From IMG/VR virus record IMGVR_UViG_3300045988_058758, positions 1 through 56,374 of that record: a stretch of DNA of 56,374 bases. The stretch is one strand, 5' to 3'. Made by a program: the position numbers and the translations under genes. Position 1 is the stretch's first letter. Every line of letters starts with the position of its first letter. This DNA is from a virus. Positions 3,198 to 56,354 of the stretch are shown here, one piece after another. The notes under the pieces were generated by a model, which saw only the letters and a program-made list of their open reading frames with translations, was not told where the DNA came from and made no database searches.

Positions 3198-3518
3198 ATG
3201 TTTTTTGCAATCAATGGTACAATCTGGCACATACAATATAAAAATTCAAATTCGGGCGAATTAAAGCGGTCAGACAACACAATTAGCTTAGGTGTAACTG
3301 ACAGAAACACGCATACGATATATCTGTCAGACAAACTACAGGGATTTATGCAACGCAAAGTGCTAATACACGAAGTATGCCACACTGTCTGTATGTCGTA
3401 TGATATTTATTTGCCGATTGAGACAGAAGAAATATTGTGCGATTTTGTAGCAACTTATGGAGATGAAATATTTGATATTGTTGATATGGTTTTAGGGGCA
3501 GTTAGGAGAGCGGGATAA
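3198..3518 (+). CDS. Short ImmA/IrrE-like Zn metallopeptidase (HExxH)
   Basis: Motif VLIHEVCH preceded by GVTD...TIYL, typical of COG2856-type peptidases; RBS AAGGGGG. Confidence 0.55.
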   Translation: MFFAINGTIWHIQYKNSNSGELKRSDNTISLGVTDRNTHTIYLSDKLQGFMQRKVLIHEVCHTVCMSYDIYLPIETEEILCDFVATYGDEIFDIVDMVLGAVRRAG

Positions 3519-3664
3519 TGAGTATTGATGAGCTGTTAAAGATAATTCAAAAGACTAATCCGACTATGACTAAAGAATTGTTGATATATGAGCTTGGTCA
3601 ATGTCGGTATTCAAGTAAAGCATTAATTTATACAGAAAGTTGTTGTGTTGACAATAATATTTAA
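3518..3664 (+). CDS. 48-aa ORF translationally coupled (TAATG) to the metallopeptidase
   Basis: Below the ORF-track cutoff; found by reading the sequence. Confidence 0.3.
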   Translation: MSIDELLKIIQKTNPTMTKELLIYELGQCRYSSKALIYTESCCVDNNI

Positions 3665-3676
3665 AAATGCTATTAT
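3648..3676 (+). promoter_or_regulatory. SigA-type promoter TTGACA-17-TATTAT
   Basis: Consensus -35 box, 17-nt spacer, 5/6 match at -10. Confidence 0.55.
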
Positions 3677-3739
3677 TTAATAGATGTAAACAATTGATAA
3701 TTAATATATCATTTTACCTTAATAGAACCATAGTGGAAA

Positions 3740-3783
3740 GTTGCATTGATACATTTTTGTATAGGTGCAACTTATTTTATTTT
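3740..3783 (+). promoter_or_regulatory. Terminator-like hairpin plus U-tract in the leader, 12 nt before the Cas5-like start (possible attenuator)
   Basis: GTTGCA...TGCAAC with inner TACA/TGTA, followed by TTATTTTATTTT. Confidence 0.45.
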
Positions 3784-3795
3784 AGAGGTTTTATT

Positions 3796-4494
3796 ATGAG
3801 AGTTGTAAGATTAAAAATGTATCAAGAAATGGCTAGATTCAATAATCCATCAGCACCAAAAGGTGCAGATTGCTACCCTTTGCCACCATTTAGTACAGTT
3901 AATGGGTTTATTCATTCAATGTGTCAATGGAAAATGTATCATAAATTAGATTATTTTGTTACTGGCAAAGGAATTTATAATACTAAGGTGCAAAAAGAAT
4001 GGCACGGTGGCTATAATTTCAACAAAATTAACGATGAAATGCTTAATCGTTGGGATATTATAACAGATCATGCAGACGGAAGCCGCACCGGCTGGGTCAG
4101 TGCAGTTAAATATCATCTAATGCTAGTTGATTTATATACAACTATATACATCAAAGCTGATGATAGTGACATAGATGATATATACCATGCGTTACTAAAC
4201 CCACCGGTATATCCATCATTAGGTGAGTATGGTGATTTATGCAAGATTGAAGCAGTAGATATTGTAGAACTTAAGGAACTTGACAAAACTATATCAGCTC
4301 CATTAGATACGCAATCTTATATTCCTGTTAATAAAGGCAATTTCACAGGAACTATATATAGAATTAATAACAAATATGAAATTATCAAAGGTTTTAGGCG
4401 ATTCCAGAAAGTTCCTTGTTACTTAGTAGATAAAGAGCAGGAAGTTGTTAGTAATCTTTTTGATGATGATAAACCGATTATTTTTATAGATTGA
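3796..4494 (+). CDS. Solitary Cas5-like RAMP protein (resembles type I-B/TNEAP Cas5)
   Basis: N-terminal RVVRLKMYQEMARF...YPLPPFSTVNGFIHSMC and later NPPVYPSLGEYGDLCKIE match remembered Cas5 motifs; RBS AGAGG; no other cas genes in the genome. Confidence 0.55.
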   Translation: MRVVRLKMYQEMARFNNPSAPKGADCYPLPPFSTVNGFIHSMCQWKMYHKLDYFVTGKGIYNTKVQKEWHGGYNFNKINDEMLNRWDIITDHADGSRTGWVSAVKYHLMLVDLYTTIYIKADDSDIDDIYHALLNPPVYPSLGEYGDLCKIEAVDIVELKELDKTISAPLDTQSYIPVNKGNFTGTIYRINNKYEIIKGFRRFQKVPCYLVDKEQEVVSNLFDDDKPIIFID

Positions 4495-4501
4495 TTTAAA
4501 C

Positions 4502-4552
4502 CCCACGGAATATAGGTAAAATTTTTCTTTACCCCCGTGGGTTGACTTTTTG
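4502..4552. terminator. Two-tier hairpin terminator after the Cas5-like gene
   Basis: CCCACGG/CCGTGGG outer stem and GGTAAA/TTTACC inner stem, followed by TTGACTTTTTG. Confidence 0.55.
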
Positions 4553-4559
4553 TATTCAC

Positions 4560-4770
4560 AATTTCAATTTTAAAAAATCTCAAAATTTGGTGCAGATTTC
4601 GTTCAAATCCTACTAAAAAAAATTGGAAAAATTTCTCCACAAATTTTATTGCTAAAAATTTTGATACCCCCGTCATATGCAATTTTGGAATCCAAAAATC
4701 GGTTACGCAGAATTTCAATTTTTGCTCCCGATTTTGTTCAGATTTGCCCTGAAAAATTGATGAAAAACTT
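4560..4770. repeat. Two degenerate copies of a 60-80-nt unit in A/T-tract-rich ORF-free DNA
   Basis: AATTTCAATTTT at 4560 and 4711; GATTTCGTTCAAAT vs GATTTTGTTCAGAT; CAAAATTTGGTGCAG vs CAAAAATCGGTTACGCAG. Confidence 0.6.
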
Positions 4771-5100
4771 TAATAGATTAAAGTGCATTATATAAACTTG
4801 ACCGGCTGTGATTCGTGCTTGTTTTGACTTTGTGGCTTTGTGATTTGCCCTGTACGGCGGTTTTATTGTGTCGGTGTAGACTTCTAAGCCTACAGAACAA
4901 ACAGCCTTAAAACGCTTTTAAATGTATTGCGCAAAATGGATATAATACACCTGTTGGGTTGTTGGAGCTGTCGCCAGTTTTGAAGAATCCACCAGAACAC
5001 GCGCCGCCCCAACTGGGTACACTTGTACACCTAAAAGGTGTAAAAAGCCTTATATATAAGCATAGCATTATTATATTGATTTTTCAAGGTACACAATAAA

Positions 5101-5118
5101 AGCATATAAATATATGCT
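5101..5118. terminator. Palindromic hairpin AGCATATA-N-TATATGCT (U-tract on the minus strand)
   Basis: Perfect palindrome; minus strand continues TTTATT. Confidence 0.4.
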
Positions 5119-5120
5119 AA

Positions 5121-5160
5121 TGCTTGCGGCTGGAATCGAACCAGTCAAACCACAGCAAGC
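5121..5160 (-). ncRNA. tRNA-like acceptor/T-arm minihelix no. 1 (no D or anticodon arm)
   Basis: Minus strand: GCTTGCT-GTGGTTTG-ACTGG-TTCGATT-CCAGC-CGCAAGC-A. Confidence 0.5.
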
Positions 5161-5187
5161 CAAAAAGGGCGCAGATTGTACGCCCTT
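5161..5187 (-). terminator. Rho-independent terminator of the leftward cassette
   Basis: AAGGGCG/CGCCCTT stem followed by T5 on the minus strand; overlaps the stop codon. Confidence 0.7.
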
Positions 5188-5488
5188 ATTCAATATATTT
5201 TTTGTAATGTTCTGGAAATTTGAAAATCCTTTCTCTTCCTATGTTCTTTGGTTTAGATGAAAATCTTTCTAATCTTGTTGAGCTGCTATTGACATCTAAA
5301 TCTAAATCATTGTAACACTGTTCGCACTCTAAACGCACTATCCAATTAAATGAGCCGCTATCATATTGATATAACATAGCTTTAGCTTTTGGATAGGCTT
5401 TTAAATAATTTTCAATAGATTGAAATTGTAAAGCAGTTTCTTCAAGTTTCGAATATCTGTCAATTTTTAGCCAATGTACATATTTCAC
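5186..5488 (-). CDS. Hypothetical protein (100 aa), third gene of the ArdA cassette
   Basis: GTG start with RBS GGAGG 7 nt upstream. Confidence 0.65.
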   Translation of the reverse strand: MKYVHWLKIDRYSKLEETALQFQSIENYLKAYPKAKAMLYQYDSGSFNWIVRLECEQCYNDLDLDVNSSSTRLERFSSKPKNIGRERIFKFPEHYKKYIE

Positions 5489-5530
5489 GGTACAACCTCC
5501 ATATATTTATTATTTGCCATTTGGCAAAAA

Positions 5531-5571
5531 TCCGTCGCAGGGATTCGAACCCTGCCGACCGCCTGAACGGA
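5531..5571 (-). ncRNA. tRNA-like acceptor/T-arm minihelix no. 2
   Basis: Minus strand: TCCGTTC-AGGCGGTCGG-CAGGG-TTCGAAT-CCCTG-CGACGGA followed by TTTTT. Confidence 0.55.
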
Positions 5572-5583
5572 TGACGAAAAGAA

Positions 5584-5949
5584 TTAATATTTTTCTGGGC
5601 TTGTTACTTTGTCAAAACCAAAATAAAAATATGCATTGCTTGCCCTGTTTGCCTTGTCCGCTGTAGCCTTGTCAATTTCGCAATATCCTATTACCTCGTG
5701 ATTCCTCCATATAGCATACTTTTTCAATGGTTTCGTGTCGTCAACTATAAGAAAATGCCTATTTTCAAAAAATAATGTTGTACCATATCCAGGCAAGAAA
5801 GCACTTTTGATTGTTTTGTCTATTATTTCCTTTTTGGTGTAATCAACGATATAATTTGTTTTGTAATCGTTCGGTATTCTTTCCCATTCTTCCCTTGTTA
5901 AAATGTGCAAAACGCTTTTATTTTCGTCTGATAACTGTATTTTTTTCAT
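5584..5949 (-). CDS. Hypothetical protein (121 aa), second gene of the ArdA cassette
   Basis: ATG preceded by GAAAGGCGG; the upstream part of the tracked ORF overlaps minihelix no. 3. Confidence 0.65.
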   Translation of the reverse strand: MKKIQLSDENKSVLHILTREEWERIPNDYKTNYIVDYTKKEIIDKTIKSAFLPGYGTTLFFENRHFLIVDDTKPLKKYAIWRNHEVIGYCEIDKATADKANRASNAYFYFGFDKVTSPEKY

Positions 5950-5991
5950 ATAAATACCGCCTTTCAATTTTATTATCCTCTTACGAGGTAA

Positions 5992-6033
5992 AAGCAAGCC
6001 GGGGAATCGAACCCCGGGAACGCCGACCTTGCC
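5992..6033 (-). ncRNA. tRNA-like acceptor/T-arm minihelix no. 3
   Basis: Minus strand: GGCAAGG-TCGGCGTTC-CCGGGG-TTCGATT-CCCCGG-CTTGCTT; begins at the ArdA stop codon. Confidence 0.5.
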
Positions 6034-6545
6034 TAGAATATCTCTATAGCATTGTTATCATCTGTAAAAATGTAAGTTCCTTCGATGCCTAAATCCCTGC
6101 CGAATGATTCATAATCAAAATATCTTGCTACATTGTCAGGTACATTATTCAAATATCCACATTCCTCTACAACCTGATATGCTATGTCGGTCATATCGTC
6201 ACAATCACTATATATTCTATAATCGCCACTGTTTACCTTGTCTATAGCTTCATTCAGTGTATAACCTAACTCCGACATTAAAACTTTCACAACTTCACTT
6301 TCTTCTTCACCTAACTCTTCAATCCGTTCTGCTATCTCATTTAATGTATCTAGGCTTTCATACTCTCCGACTTCGTAAAAGTCGCACTCATAATCAGTTA
6401 TAAAATACTCTTCATATTCTTCATTGATTCCAATACGCTCAAATACTTTCTGAAGTTCTTCCTGTGATACTGGCAGCTCTACCCATTCGCCTATCAACTC
6501 GCCTTCATTATACTTGCCTAAGTTTGTTAAATAAATATTCATCAT
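6033..6545 (-). CDS. ardA: Antirestriction protein ArdA (DNA-mimic inhibitor of type I R-M)
   Basis: Near full-length resemblance to Tn916 Orf18/ArdA (IY..NLGKYNEGEL.G.W..LP...EE....IG.N.EYEEY.I.DYE; SDCDDM; FGRDL). Confidence 0.85.
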   Translation of the reverse strand: MMNIYLTNLGKYNEGELIGEWVELPVSQEELQKVFERIGINEEYEEYFITDYECDFYEVGEYESLDTLNEIAERIEELGEEESEVVKVLMSELGYTLNEAIDKVNSGDYRIYSDCDDMTDIAYQVVEECGYLNNVPDNVARYFDYESFGRDLGIEGTYIFTDDNNAIEIF

Positions 6546-6654
6546 GTTCTTGTACCATTTCGCCGACTGTGATATAATCGGCTTACCTTTCTTTTTTGAT
6601 TGGTGGCGGTTGCTTGTCTTGGTAGGATGTCAACCGCCTTTTATTTATGCTCTT

Positions 6655-6683
6655 ATTATAAAGCTATCTTTATATAATTACAA
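6655..6683 (-). promoter_or_regulatory. Leftward promoter TTGTAA-17-TATAAT for the ArdA cassette, with an operator in the spacer
   Basis: Read on the minus strand; perfect -10 box. Confidence 0.5.
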
Positions 6684-6847
6684 GTCGCAAAATGTAACAA
6701 ATATATAAAGCTATCTATATAATTTTATTGTGCAATATGTATAAAGCTATCTATATATAAATATATAACGCTACTATATAATAAAGTTATCTTTATATTT
6801 GTATTGACTTTAATATAACGCTACTATATAATAAAGTTATCTTTATA
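6657..6847. promoter_or_regulatory. Operator array: five TATAAAG-N4-CTTTATA-type palindromes, including two perfect 35-bp direct repeats (6763-6797 and 6813-6847)
   Basis: Palindrome copies at 6657, 6704, 6740, 6781 and 6831; ATATAACG half-sites at 6763 and 6813. Confidence 0.7.
6804..6832 (+). promoter_or_regulatory. Rightward promoter TTGACT-17-TATAAT
   Basis: Overlaps the second 35-bp repeat. Confidence 0.6.
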
Positions 6848-6862
6848 AAAGGAGTTGATTTG

Positions 6863-7084
6863 ATGGCAGTATCTAAAGCACAAGCAAGAGCAACACAGAA
6901 ATATGATAATAAGGCATATTTTAAGAGCCTAGTAAGATTCAAGAAAGAAGATGAGAAAAGAATCAGAGCCGCCGCAGGCAACAGCTTAAACGGCTTTATT
7001 GTTTCGGCGGTGCTGGAGAAAGTACAGGAAACAGAAAAGGCGAAAGCTCCAACCTGTACAAGCTCCGACGAATGCCCATTCTAA
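6863..7084 (+). CDS. Putative ribbon-helix-helix (Arc/CopG-like) DNA-binding regulator
   Basis: RBS AAGGAG; KSLVRFKKEDEKRIRAAA..SLNGFIVSAVLEKV pattern; sits next to the palindrome array. Confidence 0.45.
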   Translation: MAVSKAQARATQKYDNKAYFKSLVRFKKEDEKRIRAAAGNSLNGFIVSAVLEKVQETEKAKAPTCTSSDECPF

Positions 7085-7111
7085 ATAGTTAAAAGAATTA
7101 TAAAATATTGC

Positions 7112-7140
7112 TTGACTATATAACGATAGCGTTATATAAT
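7112..7140 (+). promoter_or_regulatory. Promoter TTGACT-17-TATAAT carrying the perfect palindrome TATATAACG-ATAG-CGTTATATA (7117-7138)
   Basis: Same architecture as the 6804-6832 promoter. Confidence 0.6.
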
Positions 7141-7190
7141 AAGAGTACAAATTAAGAAAGGGCAGCCGAAAGGCTGAAAAGGTGGAAAGG

Positions 7191-7385
7191 ATGAAAACAG
7201 CAGAGTTATTAAACAAAGTTGTTGGACTTGGATTTGACAGAGAAAAGGCACTTGCAGACATAGACGCAAGTCTTGATGAAATAATCGGAGCAGAGAACAG
7301 AAAGCCAATCGCAGAAGAAGAAATAAGCGAAGAGCTGGCAAGCGATATTTTATTCGGGTTTGAATGCGAAAAAGAAAACAATTAA
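7191..7385 (+). CDS. Small acidic hypothetical protein
   Basis: RBS AAAGGTGG. Confidence 0.55.
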   Translation: MKTAELLNKVVGLGFDREKALADIDASLDEIIGAENRKPIAEEEISEELASDILFGFECEKENN

Positions 7386-7407
7386 GAAAGGTTAAAAGGT
7401 GGACGAT

Positions 7408-7710
7408 ATGAAAGCATATACGATTATTGACAAGAACGAAAGGAACGCACAAAGCGAATGCGTTTTGTACACATTCAAGGAATTGAAAGAACTTTTTAAG
7501 CCAGAGGAGGAAGAGACGGTCACTAATTGGGAAGAGTGGGAAAAGCTTCAAGATGTAGATGACTTGCAAACGTACTTGATAAAGTCATATGACGGGATGG
7601 CGTGCCCATATAGTTTTGAAGCTGTGGAAGTTGAAAGTCTGGAACAGCTCCGGCGAATGAATGAATATTTATATTCTGATGGGTTAAAAGAAGAACTGTT
7701 AAACAATTAA
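7408..7710 (+). CDS. Acidic hypothetical protein
   Basis: RBS AAAGGTGG (same as the previous gene). Confidence 0.6.
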   Translation: MKAYTIIDKNERNAQSECVLYTFKELKELFKPEEEETVTNWEEWEKLQDVDDLQTYLIKSYDGMACPYSFEAVEVESLEQLRRMNEYLYSDGLKEELLNN

Positions 7711-7723
7711 TATTAATATTTAG

Positions 7724-7753
7724 GCGGTGTATATTGTTATACATCGCTTTTTT
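7724..7753 (+). terminator. Rho-independent terminator
   Basis: 10-bp stem with TTGT loop followed by T6. Confidence 0.7.
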
Positions 7754-7820
7754 AATGCCTATTGATTAATTATATTTATTGTGTTATTATATTGCTAATA
7801 ATTAAATATATAAGATTTAC

Positions 7821-7857
7821 ACCCGATAATATTAATATTGTTATCGGGTTATTTTTA
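7821..7857 (+). terminator. Second terminator-like hairpin
   Basis: ACCCGATAA/TTATCGGGT stem followed by TATTTTTA. Confidence 0.55.
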
Positions 7858-7915
7858 TGTTATTAGATATATAATAATTAATTAGCTGGAGCAGATCTAG
7901 CAGAAAGGGGAATAT

Positions 7916-8575
7916 ATGGAAAAAGTGAAGGGAACGCCAGACACACCCGAAGTATTTCAAAACGATATAGAACTTTATTTATCGCAGTTTTGCCAAGAGC
8001 ACAACATCGAAGATATGACTAAAGAACCACAGAGCCGATGGAACGCCGCCCTAATGTATATAAATAAATATGTTTTTGGTGATAAAAGTATATTAAAATT
8101 AAATAAGAATATTAATAAAAATAATACTAATTGCATTATGGATAGTAATTTTTATATGTATGATTATGATAAATTAGAGTATATATTATATATATATTAT
8201 TATTTATGTGCTGTATATGATAAAGAATGTAGTATAATGGGATATAGCTTATTAACTGGTATTAATTACGATACGCTGATGGATTGGGGAGCAGGTGAAA
8301 GAAAACTAAGTACGAAAGCCTTCGACATCGTGCAAAAACTGCGCATTTTTCGTGAAGAAAGTTTGTCGAACAAGCTCGCAACCGGCAACAAAAACCCTGT
8401 TGGCATCCTTGCAATACTTAACCGACACTTTGTATGGAATCTTCCCGGAGTTAGTAGAGAAAGCACTACAAAAGTTATTAAGACCGCATCAGAGCTTCCA
8501 CAATTGAGCCAAAACAATACACAATTAACAGATAAGCAACAGATAAACGCTATAAACAATTCTGACACAATTTAA
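7916..8575 (+). CDS. terS: Putative terminase small subunit
   Basis: MGYSLLTGINYDTLMDWG ... NPVGILAILNRHFVWN resembles the TerS HTH and C-terminal motifs; contains a roughly 85% AT island at 8085-8225. Confidence 0.5.
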   Translation: MEKVKGTPDTPEVFQNDIELYLSQFCQEHNIEDMTKEPQSRWNAALMYINKYVFGDKSILKLNKNINKNNTNCIMDSNFYMYDYDKLEYILYIYYYLCAVYDKECSIMGYSLLTGINYDTLMDWGAGERKLSTKAFDIVQKLRIFREESLSNKLATGNKNPVGILAILNRHFVWNLPGVSRESTTKVIKTASELPQLSQNNTQLTDKQQINAINNSDTI

Positions 8576-8625
8576 ACAGTTTAGAAACCGCTTAAATACT
8601 GGGCTTATAAGTGCTAAGTATTCAT

Positions 8626-9951: not shown

Positions 9952-10023
9952 TGCACCATAGCCAAGCGGTAAGGCACAGAGCTTTGACCTCTGTATGCGT
10001 CGGTTCGAATCCGACTGGTGTAG
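9952..10023 (+). tRNA. tRNA-Gln (anticodon TTG)
   Basis: Hand-folded cloverleaf: acceptor TGCACCA/TGGTGTA (U1-A72), anticodon loop CT-TTG-AC, T arm GTCGG-TTCGAAT-CCGAC. Confidence 0.8.
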
Positions 10024-10258
10024 TTCGTCTTACTTTTATCGTAGACTACCATGTTTTGCATTTTAAGGTAGTCCTCCTTTCATGTACCTCTTTGGATTTT
10101 GTTCAGTTAAAAGCGGTGCAAGACCGCTTGAGAGGGCTTGGCGTGTATATACACAGTCATGTGAAAACCAACTTATCAAGAAGCACTCCTTACTAAAATA
10201 CCCCTAATATTTTATTGTTTCTGTTCTTGTTTCTTGATAGCCGTTACAGGCGGTATTT

Positions 10259-10341
10259 GCCGATATGGGATAAAGGTATTCCAGTAGCTTGCTAAGCTAT
10301 CCAACAGAAATGTTGTTCGTGTTCGATTCACGATGTCGGCG
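10259..10341 (+). tRNA. tRNA-Ser (anticodon GCT), long variable arm
   Basis: Acceptor GCCGATA/TGTCGGC; anticodon loop TT-GCT-AA; variable arm CAACA-GAA-ATGTTG; T arm TCGTG-TTCGATT-CACGA. Confidence 0.7.
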
Positions 10342-10456
10342 CTAACTTACGACAGGGGTGAACCTTGCCGTAAGCGGTAGAAAGTCCGCATGAAATTGTA
10401 CAAAGTAGTGGCAAAAGCAATTTCAAATATGGCAGTTCCACTACACTGTCATATTT

Positions 10457-10538
10457 GCCGTATGTCCGGGTGGTGAGGGAGCGGTCTTGAAAATCGTTGG
10501 CTGTAAAAGGCTTGCAGGTTCGAATCCTGTGTACGGCG
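10457..10538 (+). tRNA. tRNA-Ser (anticodon TGA), long variable arm
   Basis: Acceptor GCCGTAT/GTACGGC; CT-TGA-AA loop aligns with E. coli tRNA-Ser(UGA); T arm GCAGG-TTCGAAT-CCTGT. Confidence 0.65.
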
Positions 10539-10648
10539 CTTATCTTTGGATAACTTTTAATTACCAGAACTGCAAATATGGGTTATAAGGTTGTCTGTAT
10601 GGATAGTAGTTGTATTATCGGAAACAGAAAACTCTTTGCAAAATAGAA

Positions 10649-10711
10649 TTTGCAGATTTGAAATGCATTGGCATGGTTTGGTCTGACAGAGTTCGACTCT
10701 CTGTGCAACTA
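10649..10711 (+). other. Degenerate tRNA-like fragment (Gln-type anticodon arm plus T arm, no D arm)
   Basis: TGCAG-ATTTGAA-ATGCA and CAGAG-TTCGACT-CTCTG; no acceptable cloverleaf. Confidence 0.3.
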
Positions 10712-10811
10712 TTTACAGCAAACTAGGTTAGCTACCGAAAAGCAGACCACGACTGCCTGTTTGTTGTTATATCTAAAATCGTGGAAATTATCATTCGTGG
10801 AGGTAAATAAA

Positions 10812-44747: not shown

Positions 44748-45092
44748 ATGAGAGTAATATCACAGCATGGCAATGTTGATTTGCCTTATGAGCAGATAGT
44801 TGTGTGCCACGCAATGGAGAGCGTTATGGCGCTATACAATGGAGAGAAATACGTATTAGGTGAGTACTCTTCCAAAGAGAAATCGTATAAGGCTATGGAA
44901 ATGTTGAGAGAGACATATATCGGTATGCCTATTGTAATGCAGAATGTCGCTATTTCAGAAAATTTAGCAAAGGAATTTGAAAGATTGAAGAAATGTGGCG
45001 TTATGGTGCGAGCAGAAAATCAGCCGTCAAAAGTAGATTTTATCAACAATGCTGTTTTTCAGTTCCCACAGGATGATGAAATCGAGGTGTGA
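44748..45092 (+). CDS. Hypothetical protein
   Basis: RBS AAGGAG. Confidence 0.55.
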   Translation: MRVISQHGNVDLPYEQIVVCHAMESVMALYNGEKYVLGEYSSKEKSYKAMEMLRETYIGMPIVMQNVAISENLAKEFERLKKCGVMVRAENQPSKVDFINNAVFQFPQDDEIEV

Positions 45093-45094
45093 GT

Positions 45095-45451
45095 ATGAAA
45101 ATTATTAAAGGTAAAGAAAAAGAATACAAGGATTGGTACGACAAGAATAGTGATGAATATGGCAGAGCTTGCTTCGCTTATGCTGAAAGGTGGGCTGAAC
45201 TGTTAGAGACAGAAATTGACAAGAGCAATGATGTTATGAAGTGTTTTGTTGACAATGCCGACAGATTAAGCCACGAAGCAGATACAGAGGGCATAACAGG
45301 ATTTATGTACGGATGTGCAGTTAGTATTCTTTCACAGTGCTGGGAATACGGAGAGTATTTGAGAAAGTGGCACAACAAAGAGTATGGATATGACGGAGAC
45401 GGAGTTGTAAATCCAGCAGTTATGACAGTGGGTGTGGATGATGAAACTTAA
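45095..45451 (+). CDS. Hypothetical protein
   Basis: RBS GAGGTG. Confidence 0.55.
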   Translation: MKIIKGKEKEYKDWYDKNSDEYGRACFAYAERWAELLETEIDKSNDVMKCFVDNADRLSHEADTEGITGFMYGCAVSILSQCWEYGEYLRKWHNKEYGYDGDGVVNPAVMTVGVDDET

Positions 45452-46169
45452 ATGTATCGCAACGGGAAGCACAGGAAACTGCTACACCTTAACTTCTAAC
45501 GGTGGCGAAACACTTATCCTTGATTGCGGAATACCGATTAAGGAGATTAAAAAAGGCTTAGATTGGAACATTAAAGGTATTGTGGGTGTGTTATGCACCC
45601 ATAAACACCTTGACCATAGCAAGTCAGTAAAAGATTTTGAAACTATGGGTATTCCTATATGTGAGCCATACAAAGCCTTACTTATGAACCAGTTTCTAGC
45701 AAATTCTTATTTTACTGTAAGAGCATTTGACTTAACAACGATAGACGGAAACTGGACGCATACTAATGCAAATGGCGAACCTTGCCCGATATTCGGATTC
45801 CTGATTACACACCCAGAAATGGGGAAGATGCTTTACATAACGGATTGTGAAGTTATTAAGTGGAAATTTAAGGATATAAACCACATTCTCTTAGGTGTGA
45901 ACTATGACAAGGATTTAGTTGATACCGACAATCCGAAAGCTAATCACGTTTTCAGAGGTCATTTAAGCATTGATACCGCTTGCGATTTTGTTAAGGCTAA
46001 CGATTCAGATAGCTTGCAGAACGTCATAATGTGCCATTTATCAAGTGAAAATGCTGATAAGGATAGCTTTATTGAGAAAATGAAAAATGCTGTAAATGGG
46101 GCGAATGTGGACGTTGCAGAGCGTAACAAGGAATGGCTACTTGCTAATCCTAATGAGTGCCCTTTTTAG
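45441..46169 (+). CDS. Metallo-beta-lactamase-fold hydrolase/nuclease
   Basis: GSTGNCY...LDCG; THKHLDHS (HxHxDH). Confidence 0.7.
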   Translation: MKLKCIATGSTGNCYTLTSNGGETLILDCGIPIKEIKKGLDWNIKGIVGVLCTHKHLDHSKSVKDFETMGIPICEPYKALLMNQFLANSYFTVRAFDLTTIDGNWTHTNANGEPCPIFGFLITHPEMGKMLYITDCEVIKWKFKDINHILLGVNYDKDLVDTDNPKANHVFRGHLSIDTACDFVKANDSDSLQNVIMCHLSSENADKDSFIEKMKNAVNGANVDVAERNKEWLLANPNECPF

Positions 46170-54992: not shown

Positions 54993-56354
54993 ATGGAATG
55001 TGTTGCTTATATGAGAGTATCCACTGAAAAACAGGCTGTTGAGGGCAACGGACTTGATAGCCAGAAAAGGGATATTGAAAACTATTGCAGAAAAAATGAG
55101 CTTGTAATAACAGATTGGTACATTGATGATGGTTATACAGGTACGAATATGGATAGACCAGAACTTCAAAGGCTTGTGAATGACTGCGGTCGAAAGAGAA
55201 TAGGCTGCGTTGTAGCATTTAAACTTGACCGATTATCAAGAAATATGATTGATGGGATATATCTTATTGAGAAAGTATTTCAAAAATACGATGTTGTGTT
55301 TAAATGTGTTCACGATAGCGTGAATTATGACAGCCCAATGGAGCAGGCATACACACAGATGATGGCGGTATTCGCACAGCTTGATAAAAACACAATGATG
55401 TTGCGTATGCGTGGTGGAATGCTTGAACGTGTCAAGCAAGGCTACTGGTTCGGTGGCGGCAATTTGCCTTATTGTTATTCTTACAGCAAAGACCAAGGTA
55501 TATTAATACCTATTCCAGAACATGCGGAACAGGCGAGAAAAGGTCTTGAATTGTTCATATCCGGCTATTCAGATGCGAAAATTAAAGAAATTTGTGGCTT
55601 TAGATCAGAATTAGTTACTAGAAGTATCTTGACCAGCGTTGTTAATATTGGGATGATACCTTACAAAGGTAAAACATATCAAGGCAAACATGAAGCTGTT
55701 TTTGATAAAGATAGGTTTGAACTTGGATTAGAACTAAGAAAGACAAGGTGTTCGGCAAAAACTTACTGCATAACCGAACCTAATTTATTGACCGGATTAT
55801 GTTATTGTGGCATTTGTGGCTGCAAAATGCGTTATCAAAAATGGGGCAGTAAAAAGCATAAGATTTATTGCTGTTCAAGAAATAAATCACTTTCATATCT
55901 GCCTAATTATAATGCAAGCTGTAATAATTCGCTTGAATGGGCGGATGAGATAGAGAAACAGGTAGAAGAAGAAATACTTAAAATATCGCTTGATTTATCA
56001 TCTTACAAGCCGAAAGAAAAGGCGACAAAACTTGAAATTATGCAATCACAGCTTGAAAAGGAACAGATTAAGCTAAAAAGATTATATAATCTGTATGCTG
56101 ACGGAAATGATACAGTCTTAGAAATGATTAAGGAGCTCGAATCACAGATTAAAGAAATGAAATCAAACATTGCCGCCGAAAGCAAAAACGAAATCAATAC
56201 ACAGAAAAAGGAGTTTGTTTACGAGAACATAAAAAAACTTGCCGACATTTGGGATAAGGTCGACAAGAAACAAAAAAACATGATACTTAAGACTATAATA
56301 GATAGGATTGTTATAGTCAATGGAAATATTGAAATACAGTTAAAGAATTTTTAG
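54993..56354 (+). CDS. int: Large serine recombinase (integrase)
   Basis: YMRVSTEKQ catalytic Ser region; FKLDRLSRN; recombinase domain; Zn ribbon CGICGCKM...YCC; C-terminal coiled coil. Confidence 0.9.
   Translation: MECVAYMRVSTEKQAVEGNGLDSQKRDIENYCRKNELVITDWYIDDGYTGTNMDRPELQRLVNDCGRKRIGCVVAFKLDRLSRNMIDGIYLIEKVFQKYDVVFKCVHDSVNYDSPMEQAYTQMMAVFAQLDKNTMMLRMRGGMLERVKQGYWFGGGNLPYCYSYSKDQGILIPIPEHAEQARKGLELFISGYSDAKIKEICGFRSELVTRSILTSVVNIGMIPYKGKTYQGKHEAVFDKDRFELGLELRKTRCSAKTYCITEPNLLTGLCYCGICGCKMRYQKWGSKKHKIYCCSRNKSLSYLPNYNASCNNSLEWADEIEKQVEEEILKISLDLSSYKPKEKATKLEIMQSQLEKEQIKLKRLYNLYADGNDTVLEMIKELESQIKEMKSNIAAESKNEINTQKKEFVYENIKKLADIWDKVDKKQKNMILKTIIDRIVIVNGNIEIQLKNF

Follow-up and report, generated by a model that had tools for sequence, protein, structure and literature searches.

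Why would a temperate phage keep a single gene of a CRISPR system without the remainder of that system? The question is raised by IMG/VR record IMGVR_UViG_3300045988_058758, which was analysed over its whole length of 56,374 nucleotides (nt; hereafter the window) and in which a preliminary description had pointed to a solitary Cas5-like gene behind a promoter and a terminator-like leader. The product of this gene is a Cas5b homologue by both its profile match and its predicted fold, far above chance, and the "terminator-like leader" between promoter and gene is, judged from its sequence, a gene for a small RNA resembling a CRISPR RNA (crRNA). The orphan viral Cas5 genes of the clade to which the window gene belongs are consistently paired with such a crRNA-like RNA, and this pairing constitutes a new element. 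We consider the chance somewhat better than even that positions 3648-4494 form a two-component counter-CRISPR module, protein plus RNA, acting against the type I-B system of the host.

A Cas5b homologue in a temperate phage

The window represents a temperate gut phage in which genes for a portal protein, a major capsid protein, a holin, a GH25 lysozyme and a serine recombinase were identified. Residues 1-218 of the Cas5-like product, which is 232 amino acids (aa) long as previously described, matched positions 1-204 of 217 of the NCBIfam profile TIGR01895 (Cas5t/Cas5b) with E=3.8e-23, and the PADLOC Cas5b profile was matched with E=1e-23. Of the family checks proposed in the preliminary description, the one against TIGR01895 was thus positive, if at a score (82.2 bits) under the curated cut-off of 96.7 bits, and the one against Pfam PF09704 gave only a weak match (E=0.096). 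In the structural check, with an AlphaFold model of the protein (predicted local distance difference test score 78.9, predicted template modelling score 0.69) as query, the top Protein Data Bank matches in Foldseek were all Cas5 subunits of Cascade (9cro_H, 1.8e-5; 8fcj_A, 5.7e-5; 4tvx_H), the top structural matches being to Cas5 of type I-A, I-B, I-E and I-C Cascades with template modelling (TM) scores of 0.4-0.5. Both motifs that had first suggested the assignment, the N-terminal PLPP motif and the LG motif, are present. The Cas5b core is retained (Y-PLPPFSTV-G-H-C, the LG..D motif, GT.Y, R201 and D223), and the N-terminal PLPP(F/Y)ST..G..H motif is invariant across the viral and cellular sets. 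Identity to real Cas5 proteins is 25-32%, and the clade carries fixed changes of its own (Q10, Y15F, Y69W and F71G) at sites that are 85-100% invariant in cellular Cas5b.

A longer open reading frame (ORF) of 275 aa from position 3667 was rejected as the true form of the gene; it is implausible because its start falls inside the promoter. The UniProt/BFVD entry A0A8D9PGM8 ("Uncharacterized protein [Bacteriophage sp.]", 275 aa, 95% identical) probably has a mis-annotated start, called from the upstream in-frame ATG inside the promoter/RNA gene.

None of the 97 other window ORFs of at least 45 aa matched a Cas family in PADLOC at E<=1e-3, and the gene is not part of a cas8b-cas7-cas5 operon with an array. 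The window contains no CRISPR array, two full repeats with unique spacers of normal length being absent; all that it has of this type is a single incomplete repeat (positions 4-23 in the model of 30) and a bare handle with a 27-nt spacer. The earlier statement that the phage has no other cas gene and no array therefore stands, except that CRISPR-like sequence, namely a handle of type I-B and a unit similar to a repeat, stands in the leader itself.

Relatives of the gene were sought in viral and cellular sequences, and loci used for comparison are designated by L numbers. In neighbour-joining trees the short viral homologues formed a clade of their own in 100 of 100 bootstraps, and in 40 of 40 after the addition of seven further phage proteins. 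A tblastn search of GenBank phages gave only two Listeria phage matches, at 22.9% identity; the Listeria phage protein sits among cellular Cas5b, and in none of 100 bootstraps did it group with the window protein. When the window was compared by megablast with the phages in GenBank, one trivial match was obtained, and scans of viral contigs with a single protein as query (P0013, P0007) yielded hardly any matches. Of 80 relatives from GTDB genomes, 75 have Cas8b and Cas7 genes as neighbours and one (L047) is an orphan; the other four are cut short where their contig ends.

These distributions bear on the possibility, anticipated in the preliminary description, that homologues always belong to complete cas operons and that the phage copy is a decaying, functionless fragment of one. 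The score under the NCBIfam cut-off and three relatives with a version of the protein truncated at 105 aa would suit such decay. Against this, the gene is intact and full-length in more than 200 IMG/VR contigs, and its core motifs have been conserved throughout a viral clade that is deep. All of the 80 close relatives (the best 80 of 218 IMG/VR stretches, 89-97% identity) keep the module, whereas the DNA on its right side is freely replaced. Together, this makes a decaying fragment extremely improbable in our view. The gene is already catalogued as an orphan viral cas5. Katz et al. listed 358 orphan viral cas genes (10.1101/2023.06.24.545427), and entries IMGVR_UViG_3300045988_054677 and _038347 of their Table S3 correspond to L129 (94% identical protein) and L183. 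Both are labelled there as "cas5, CAS-I-B", orphan viral, with Lachnospira as the predicted host (10.1101/2023.06.24.545427). The idea of a protein anti-CRISPR is largely anticipated by that work and is not new.

A predicted crRNA-like RNA gene in the leader

The promoter noted in the preliminary description was confirmed, and the elements that follow it up to the start codon are listed in Table 1. A repeat model (R1) was built from 42 I-B repeats of arrays next to cellular Cas5b genes, e.g. GTTTTAATCTAACCATAGTGGAATGTAAAT; an ungapped full-length position weight matrix under-scores units without a handle, so a local model and a matrix of the repeat core were used. When both strands of the full 56 kb were searched with R1, the unit at 3719-3738 scored highest (15 bits, E=0.0025). 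This unit ends where an 8-nt handle would begin, and the terminator stands where the last handle would be. At the other end, the handle starts 7 nt past the -10 box, which ends at 3676. Since an equal 7-nt gap between the -10 box and ATGTAAA recurs in L175 and L177, transcription from the predicted start probably gives an RNA that has its 5' handle (AUGUAAAC) from the outset. Folding of the 101-nt RNA gave z=-2.5.

The hairpin and T-run had been described as a leader through which expression may need antitermination; the hairpin is there, and it would be the terminator of the crRNA-like RNA gene rather than part of an antitermination-dependent leader. With no more than 12 nt between T-run and ATG, translation of the Cas5-like protein would depend on read-through of this terminator. 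A perfect complementarity of 13 nt was also seen between 3746-3758 (5' arm and loop of the terminator) and 3813-3825 (codons 6-10 of the Cas5-like gene). This pairing could enclose the ribosome-binding site and start codon in read-through transcripts; it had no obvious counterpart on reading the L010 sequence.

Table 1. Positions of the module, its neighbours in the window and the CreR/CreA-like genes of host loci.
Feature	Position	Strand	Remarks
Sigma-70-type promoter	3648-3676	+	TTGACA-17-TATTAT with TG extension (TGc); 11/12 positions; best site in 3300-5400
First-repeat remnant	3677-3691	+	TTAATAG + ATGTAAAC; handle at predicted transcription start
Type I-B 5' handle	3684-3691	+	ATGTAAAC, 8 nt; equals 3' end of 42 I-B repeats
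Pseudo-spacer	3692-3718	+	AATTGATAATTAATATATCATTTTACC, 27 nt; two alleles among 80 relatives
Repeat-like unit	3719-3738	+	TTAATAGAACCATAGTGGAA; positions 4-23 of 30-nt I-B repeat; without handle
Intrinsic terminator	3738-3783	+	Arms 3738-3753/3758-3773, 4-nt loop, T-run TTATTTTATTTT
Ribosome-binding site	3784-3788	+	AGAGG; 7 nt before ATG 3796; GGAGG in many relatives
Cas5b-homologous gene	3796-4494	+	232 aa, starts MRVVRLKMYQEMARFNNP; profile, fold, virus-only clade
GC-rich hairpin	4501-4542	.	CCCCACGG...CCGTGGGT; closes Cas5-like gene
106-aa ORF and 48-aa ORF	3198-3664		5' of module; 106-aa ORF with weak M78/ImmA-like HExxH match
ArdA	6033-6545	minus	E=3.5e-42
Large serine recombinase	54993-56354		At end of window
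CreR/CreA-like gene, L015	1567-1760		
CreR/CreA-like gene, L057	6827-6950		
CreR/CreA-like gene, L092	6308-6480		
CreR/CreA-like gene, L041	6360-6540		
CreR/CreA-like genes, L081, L085, L086	~6790-6880		

Pairing of the RNA with viral Cas5 genes

The upstream RNA element was found in 80 of 80 IMG/VR relatives of the window lineage. Its handle, repeat core and terminator hardly differ among these relatives, while neighbouring third-codon positions vary, and the handle is invariant in 78 of them. Homologue loci with proteins at 52-64% identity had their best R1 matches at the equivalent position of the leader; the equivalent promoter lies at the same place in L010, L175, L177 and L179, and the first unit is a full repeat in L010 and L179. 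At 41% protein identity (L181), three units stand directly 3' of the gene, the last without a handle and followed by a terminator.

Another 60 loci, in which the Cas5-like gene is full-length and encodes 219-242 aa (L225-L287), came from a second scan of viral contigs. A repeat core lies 75-101 nt past the stop codon on the same strand in 58 of these 60 phage loci. Nearly all of the 58 have an ATGTAAA-type handle 15-30 nt 5' of the core, and many have two units. The terminator after the RNA was also present in both loci read in detail (L273 and L225), and in L225, as in the window, the RNA has its own consensus promoter. Wherever loci were folded (nine of nine), a hairpin directly followed the ..GGAA of the last repeat-like unit, with a T-run directly after it in eight of the nine, the hairpin sequences being unrelated. 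The pairing has thus been kept despite rearrangement from a downstream to an upstream position and across proteins that are only 31-64% identical. Long-form Cas5 genes of Fusobacterium phages (L208-L224) had no consistent repeat-like partner.

The constancy of the pairing speaks against an explanation in which the protein alone is the anti-CRISPR, as a faulty Cas5 in Cascade, the leader being a captured relic of a cas locus whose hairpin insulates or attenuates the gene. AcrIB3, a Cas5 homologue from Listeria that blocks type I-B by entering a defective Cascade (10.1101/2023.06.24.545427), works by itself from a plasmid (10.1101/2023.06.24.545427), and both the Listeria locus and the subclade of protein P0014 are without a detectable RNA. 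Co-capture of an RNA with the gene is plausible because the host loci L030, L032 and L061 have a repeat-like unit just 3' of cas5. A relic would decay, yet handle, core and terminator are nearly invariant in the 80 relatives; the association outlasts the rearrangement described above; and the RNA has a consensus promoter of its own in L225 and in the window. We therefore regard action of the protein alone as unlikely.

Pseudo-spacers and host counterparts

Two pseudo-spacer alleles occur among the close relatives, AATTGATAATTAATAT in 57 of 80 loci and the AATAGATAACTATTAT type in 23; three positions distinguish them, and the flanks on either side are invariant. Three repeat-like units in an array behind a promoter were also found in a mobile element (L205 1120-1330; L189, L204) that is unrelated, bears no similarity to the window and has genes of replication type and none of cas type. 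Both pseudo-spacers of L205 share the first 16 nt of the window RNA pseudo-spacer, although the repeat parts of the element differ, and the second pseudo-spacer of L189 and L204 agrees with these 16 nt at 15 positions. This suggests that the pseudo-spacer may act like a specificity element.

RNA genes of the same architecture are present in cellular CRISPR loci. CreR/CreA-like genes (Table 1) lie in type I-B cas loci of Clostridia and Fusobacteria, where isolated units are laid out as one unit that bears a handle, a pseudo-spacer (~23-30 nt), a second unit that has none and a terminator. All of the listed loci except L057 have a nearby partial match flanked by CCT, CCA or TCT, and by their sequence these isolated host units are putative regulators of the CreR/CreA type.

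A counterpart of the phage module was found in the cultured bacterium Hominibacterium faecale SF3, in which an orphan long-form Cas5 gene (L047 3246-4247) is followed by a three-unit RNA array, and neither cas8b nor cas7 is present in the 14 kb of this stretch. The protein falls into the long-form branch of cellular Cas5, outside the viral clade. The second pseudo-spacer of the array is identical at 23 of 24 positions to the pseudo-spacer of the regulator RNA in the type I-B locus of the same genome (L041), and that regulator has a CCA-flanked 10/12 target adjoining a TTGACA-17-TATATT promoter that faces cas6-cas8b. H. faecale SF3 thus has both an orphan Cas5-RNA pair and a cognate I-B locus.

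Searches for the window's own target included a 14-nt match to the pseudo-spacer at L158 246-259, which is consistent with chance. A single metagenome scan for a host regulator RNA, the pattern of which required GGAATGTAAA and would miss GGGATGTAAA-type repeats, returned only the mobile element L189/L204/L205 and chance matches in the Bacteroides-like contigs L185, L188, L196 and L199. A CreTA-like self-targeting addiction module was considered and rejected because the window RNA has no self-target.

The handle, spacer and repeat parts of the RNA, and the existence of known viral mini-arrays, invite comparison with a mini-CRISPR array used in warfare between phages through the Cascade-Cas3 of the host, aided by the viral Cas5. 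Such a role appears very unlikely: the pseudo-spacers (~16-31 nt) are far shorter than the spacers of the I-B arrays in this data set, with repeats every 50-85 nt, distant lineages have them in conserved form and not as new acquisitions, host regulatory RNAs that have partial targets show the same architecture, and the phage loci examined gave no match beyond the elements themselves.

Comparison with known anti-CRISPR proteins and RNAs

The window protein resembles AcrIB3 in being a full-length Cas5b homologue encoded by a phage or prophage outside a cas operon, with type I-B Cascade as its likely target. Identity to real Cas5 is 38% for AcrIB3, compared with 25-32% for the window protein, which is 23-26% identical to the Listeria phage protein and falls in a separate clade. 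The hosts of the window clade are gut Lachnospiraceae, not Listeria. In addition, the window gene is physically coupled to a gene for a crRNA-like RNA, and its activity is proposed by analogy. The paper of Katz et al. makes no mention of a crRNA-like RNA beside cas5.

Cracrs are viral crRNA-like RNAs that compete for Cas proteins, which they divert to the silencing of cas or toxin promoters (10.1101/2024.10.29.618823). They are found as arrays too, and work jointly with an anti-CRISPR (Acr) protein encoded alongside them that spares complexes with a short pseudo-spacer (10.1101/2024.10.29.618823), and type I-B candidates were mentioned by Liu et al. (10.1101/2024.10.29.618823). The window RNA shares with them a pseudo-repeat, a short pseudo-spacer, a rho-independent terminator, a promoter of its own and a place in a phage outside CRISPR-Cas loci, as well as the resemblance to host CreR/CreA-type RNAs, multi-unit arrays in relatives and a co-encoded candidate anti-CRISPR protein. 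It differs in that its partner is a Cas5 homologue ("Cas5" is absent from the text of Liu et al.) and in that the first repeat of the window lineage is reduced to a bare handle at the predicted transcription start. A further Cracr feature, agreement of at least 9 PAM-proximal pseudo-spacer nucleotides with a host CreR/CreA or the promoter that it targets, is displayed by the analogous RNA beside the orphan Cas5 of H. faecale (23 of 24). With the host CreR/CreA-type genes (L015, L057, L092, L041) the architecture is identical; those genes lie inside cas loci with partial targets nearby, whereas the window RNA lies in a phage.

Racrs are repeat mimics placed behind promoters and often adjoining acr genes, with RacrIC1 and AcrIC5 on one transcript (PMC10651486), and the window repeat mimic likewise stands directly behind a promoter, next to or on the transcript of a candidate anti-CRISPR gene. 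This likeness, together with the failure to find a target for the window pseudo-spacer, speaks for a pure decoy of the Racr type that soaks up Cas6 and Cas7, in which the spacer is irrelevant and the Cas5 copy is a second, independent block. The unit in the window is not a solitary repeat, a handle remnant and a pseudo-spacer preceding it and relatives having two or three units. RacrIF1, which is without 5' handle or spacer, excludes Cas5 and Cas8 (PMC10651486), whereas in the window RNA the handle is retained in canonical form, the pseudo-spacer is conserved and a Cas5 copy is the partner. Furthermore, 16 pseudo-spacer nucleotides are common to an unrelated element with different repeat parts, the alleles differ solely within the pseudo-spacer, and the H. 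faecale counterpart copies the pseudo-spacer of a host regulator. An RNA with an irrelevant spacer is thus improbable.

Proposed mode of action

Subunit mimicry by an anti-CRISPR protein, as suggested in the preliminary description, is by analogy the most reasonable reading of the lone Cas5b homologue, and the module as a whole most likely disarms or hijacks the type I-B defence of the host. In the two-component reading, the strong promoter would drive a crRNA-like RNA consisting of a handle at or next to the 5' end, the 27-nt pseudo-spacer and part of a repeat, the retained part being the segment that precedes the handle and stays on a crRNA as its 3' handle. The terminator would replace the last handle, and the Cas5b-derived protein would be translated from read-through transcripts. 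The RNA would compete with real crRNAs for the Cas6, Cas7 and Cas8b of the host and form non-immune complexes, and the first ~16 nt of the pseudo-spacer would steer such a complex to a host promoter, that of the cas operon or of a CRISPR-guarding toxin, where it would bind without cutting, as for viral Cracr RNAs. The viral Cas5 would take the Cas5 position on 5' handles and either favour loading of the viral RNA or, in the manner of AcrIB3, spoil complexes with real crRNAs. The outcome would be a loss of interference against the phage or prophage.

Several observations weigh against this two-component mechanism. A Cascade defective in DNA binding would also disable RNA-guided repression, so the two proposed activities may conflict, although the conflict may be avoided if the viral Cas5 discriminates between complexes. 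As mentioned above, the P0014 subclade has the protein with no detectable RNA, and no such RNA was found beside the Listeria AcrIB3-type locus. The E-values of the repeat model are modest (0.0025-0.6) and roughly calibrated. No pseudo-spacer target flanked by a protospacer-adjacent motif was found beyond chance in the window and 81 I-B loci, nor did the I-B loci examined include a host locus with the window pseudo-spacer. Since both host locus and target were not found, a guide function of the window RNA would rest on analogy. Finally, the published table is the only source for the IMG/VR prediction of Lachnospira as host.

In another reading, the viral Cas5 would be no poison subunit but a dedicated loader that caps the handle of the phage RNA and nucleates the Cas7, Cas8b and Cas6 of the host into a Cascade acting as a repressor, of the host cas operon or of a CRISPR-guarding toxin. 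As the RNA of this lineage would be transcribed with the handle at its 5' end, Cas6 cleavage would be bypassed. We regard a loader as possible, if on the unlikely side; were it true, the module would be a "Cascade hijack kit", inherited by the Lachnospiraceae phage clade and assembled independently in Hominibacterium.

Surroundings of the module

The two ORFs 5' of the module (106 aa and 48 aa) are syntenic in several lineages, including those with Cas5-like proteins only 52-64% identical, and the general order in relatives is integrase, unknown genes and then the Cas5-like gene. The 106-aa ORF scored E=5e-4 as M78/ImmA-like and E=2.7e-14 against PHROG 1233. No gene for a helix-turn-helix (HTH) regulator adjoins the window module in an acr-aca layout, these two ORFs being its neighbours. 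Homologues next to acr/aca-type loci, as the preliminary description had proposed to look for, were nevertheless represented by the P0014 relative (L004-L008), which lies behind a 90-aa gene and an HTH_3 gene at the end of a prophage.

On the other side, the hairpin at 4501-4542 is probably a two-way terminator and was the sole conserved pairing in an alifold analysis of 47 sequences. A non-coding stretch follows (4545-4800), kept in 76-80 of 80 relatives, with a degenerate direct repeat of ~150 nt (4557-4571 with 4708-4722; 4585-4599 with 4731-4745) and a TTTGATACCCCC motif that is also found 3' of the homologue in L010. It has no 3-periodicity and no conserved fold other than the terminator. 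It was rejected as a CRISPR-like RNA, matching neither the I-B repeat model nor Rfam; the suggestion that the Cas5-like protein could work with an adjacent repeat-like RNA was right in spirit and misplaced the RNA, which lies in the leader.

Relatives freely exchange the DNA that lies right of ~5200, whereas the module together with 4495-4800 is retained in 76-80 of the 80. The ArdA gene reported previously is present in this part, and 5190-8600 is a hypervariable cargo region where other relatives have different minus-strand genes. The ArdA region is common to at most 17 of the 80 close relatives and, over most of the ArdA gene, to only one or two. Because the region is hypervariable and absent from most relatives, ArdA is weak evidence for the accessory island that it had been thought to share with the Cas5-like gene. 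Fragments resembling the T-arm and acceptor of a tRNA (GGTTCGATTCC type) occur after minus-strand genes in the window (~5120-5160, minus) and in L010 (~7170-7190, 7545-7565 and 7895-7915). ARAGORN calls none of them, and Rfam gave only a weak match (Plastid-ycf2, 23.5 bits); they may be relics of recombination or attachment at the edge of the variable cargo region.

Elsewhere in the window, three tRNA genes (Gln-TTG, Ser-GCT and Ser-TGA) lie in 9952-10780, with an Rfam int-alpA RNA match at 10716-10780 (40.6 bits). In L001, a 407-kb metagenomic contig, a related prophage starts right after spoIIAA, spoIIAB and an 85-aa fragment of sigma-70 region 2 (4306-5432 onward), which suggests insertion into a sigF-like sporulation sigma gene. 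A second spot of anti-defence genes is found in the early region, where a 120-aa protein (45089-45451, +) matches the Thoeris inhibitor Tad4 (PF25186, E=2e-38). Its ORF overlaps the start of that for a protein of metallo-beta-lactamase fold (45432-46169, +) with a weak match to the Anti-Pycsar protein Apyc1 (E=2e-4, below cut-off).

Implications

Orphan viral cas genes are counted in hundreds and are mostly unexplained, and the largest Cas5 group among them brings along a crRNA-like RNA as partner, one that screens for "no CRISPR nearby" miss by design. The module links the mimicry of Cas proteins with the mimicry of guide RNAs, which have so far been described separately. If the protein biases the loading of RNA into Cascade, it would provide a new handle to control type I-B tools and a route to CRISPR-resistant phages against gut Clostridia.

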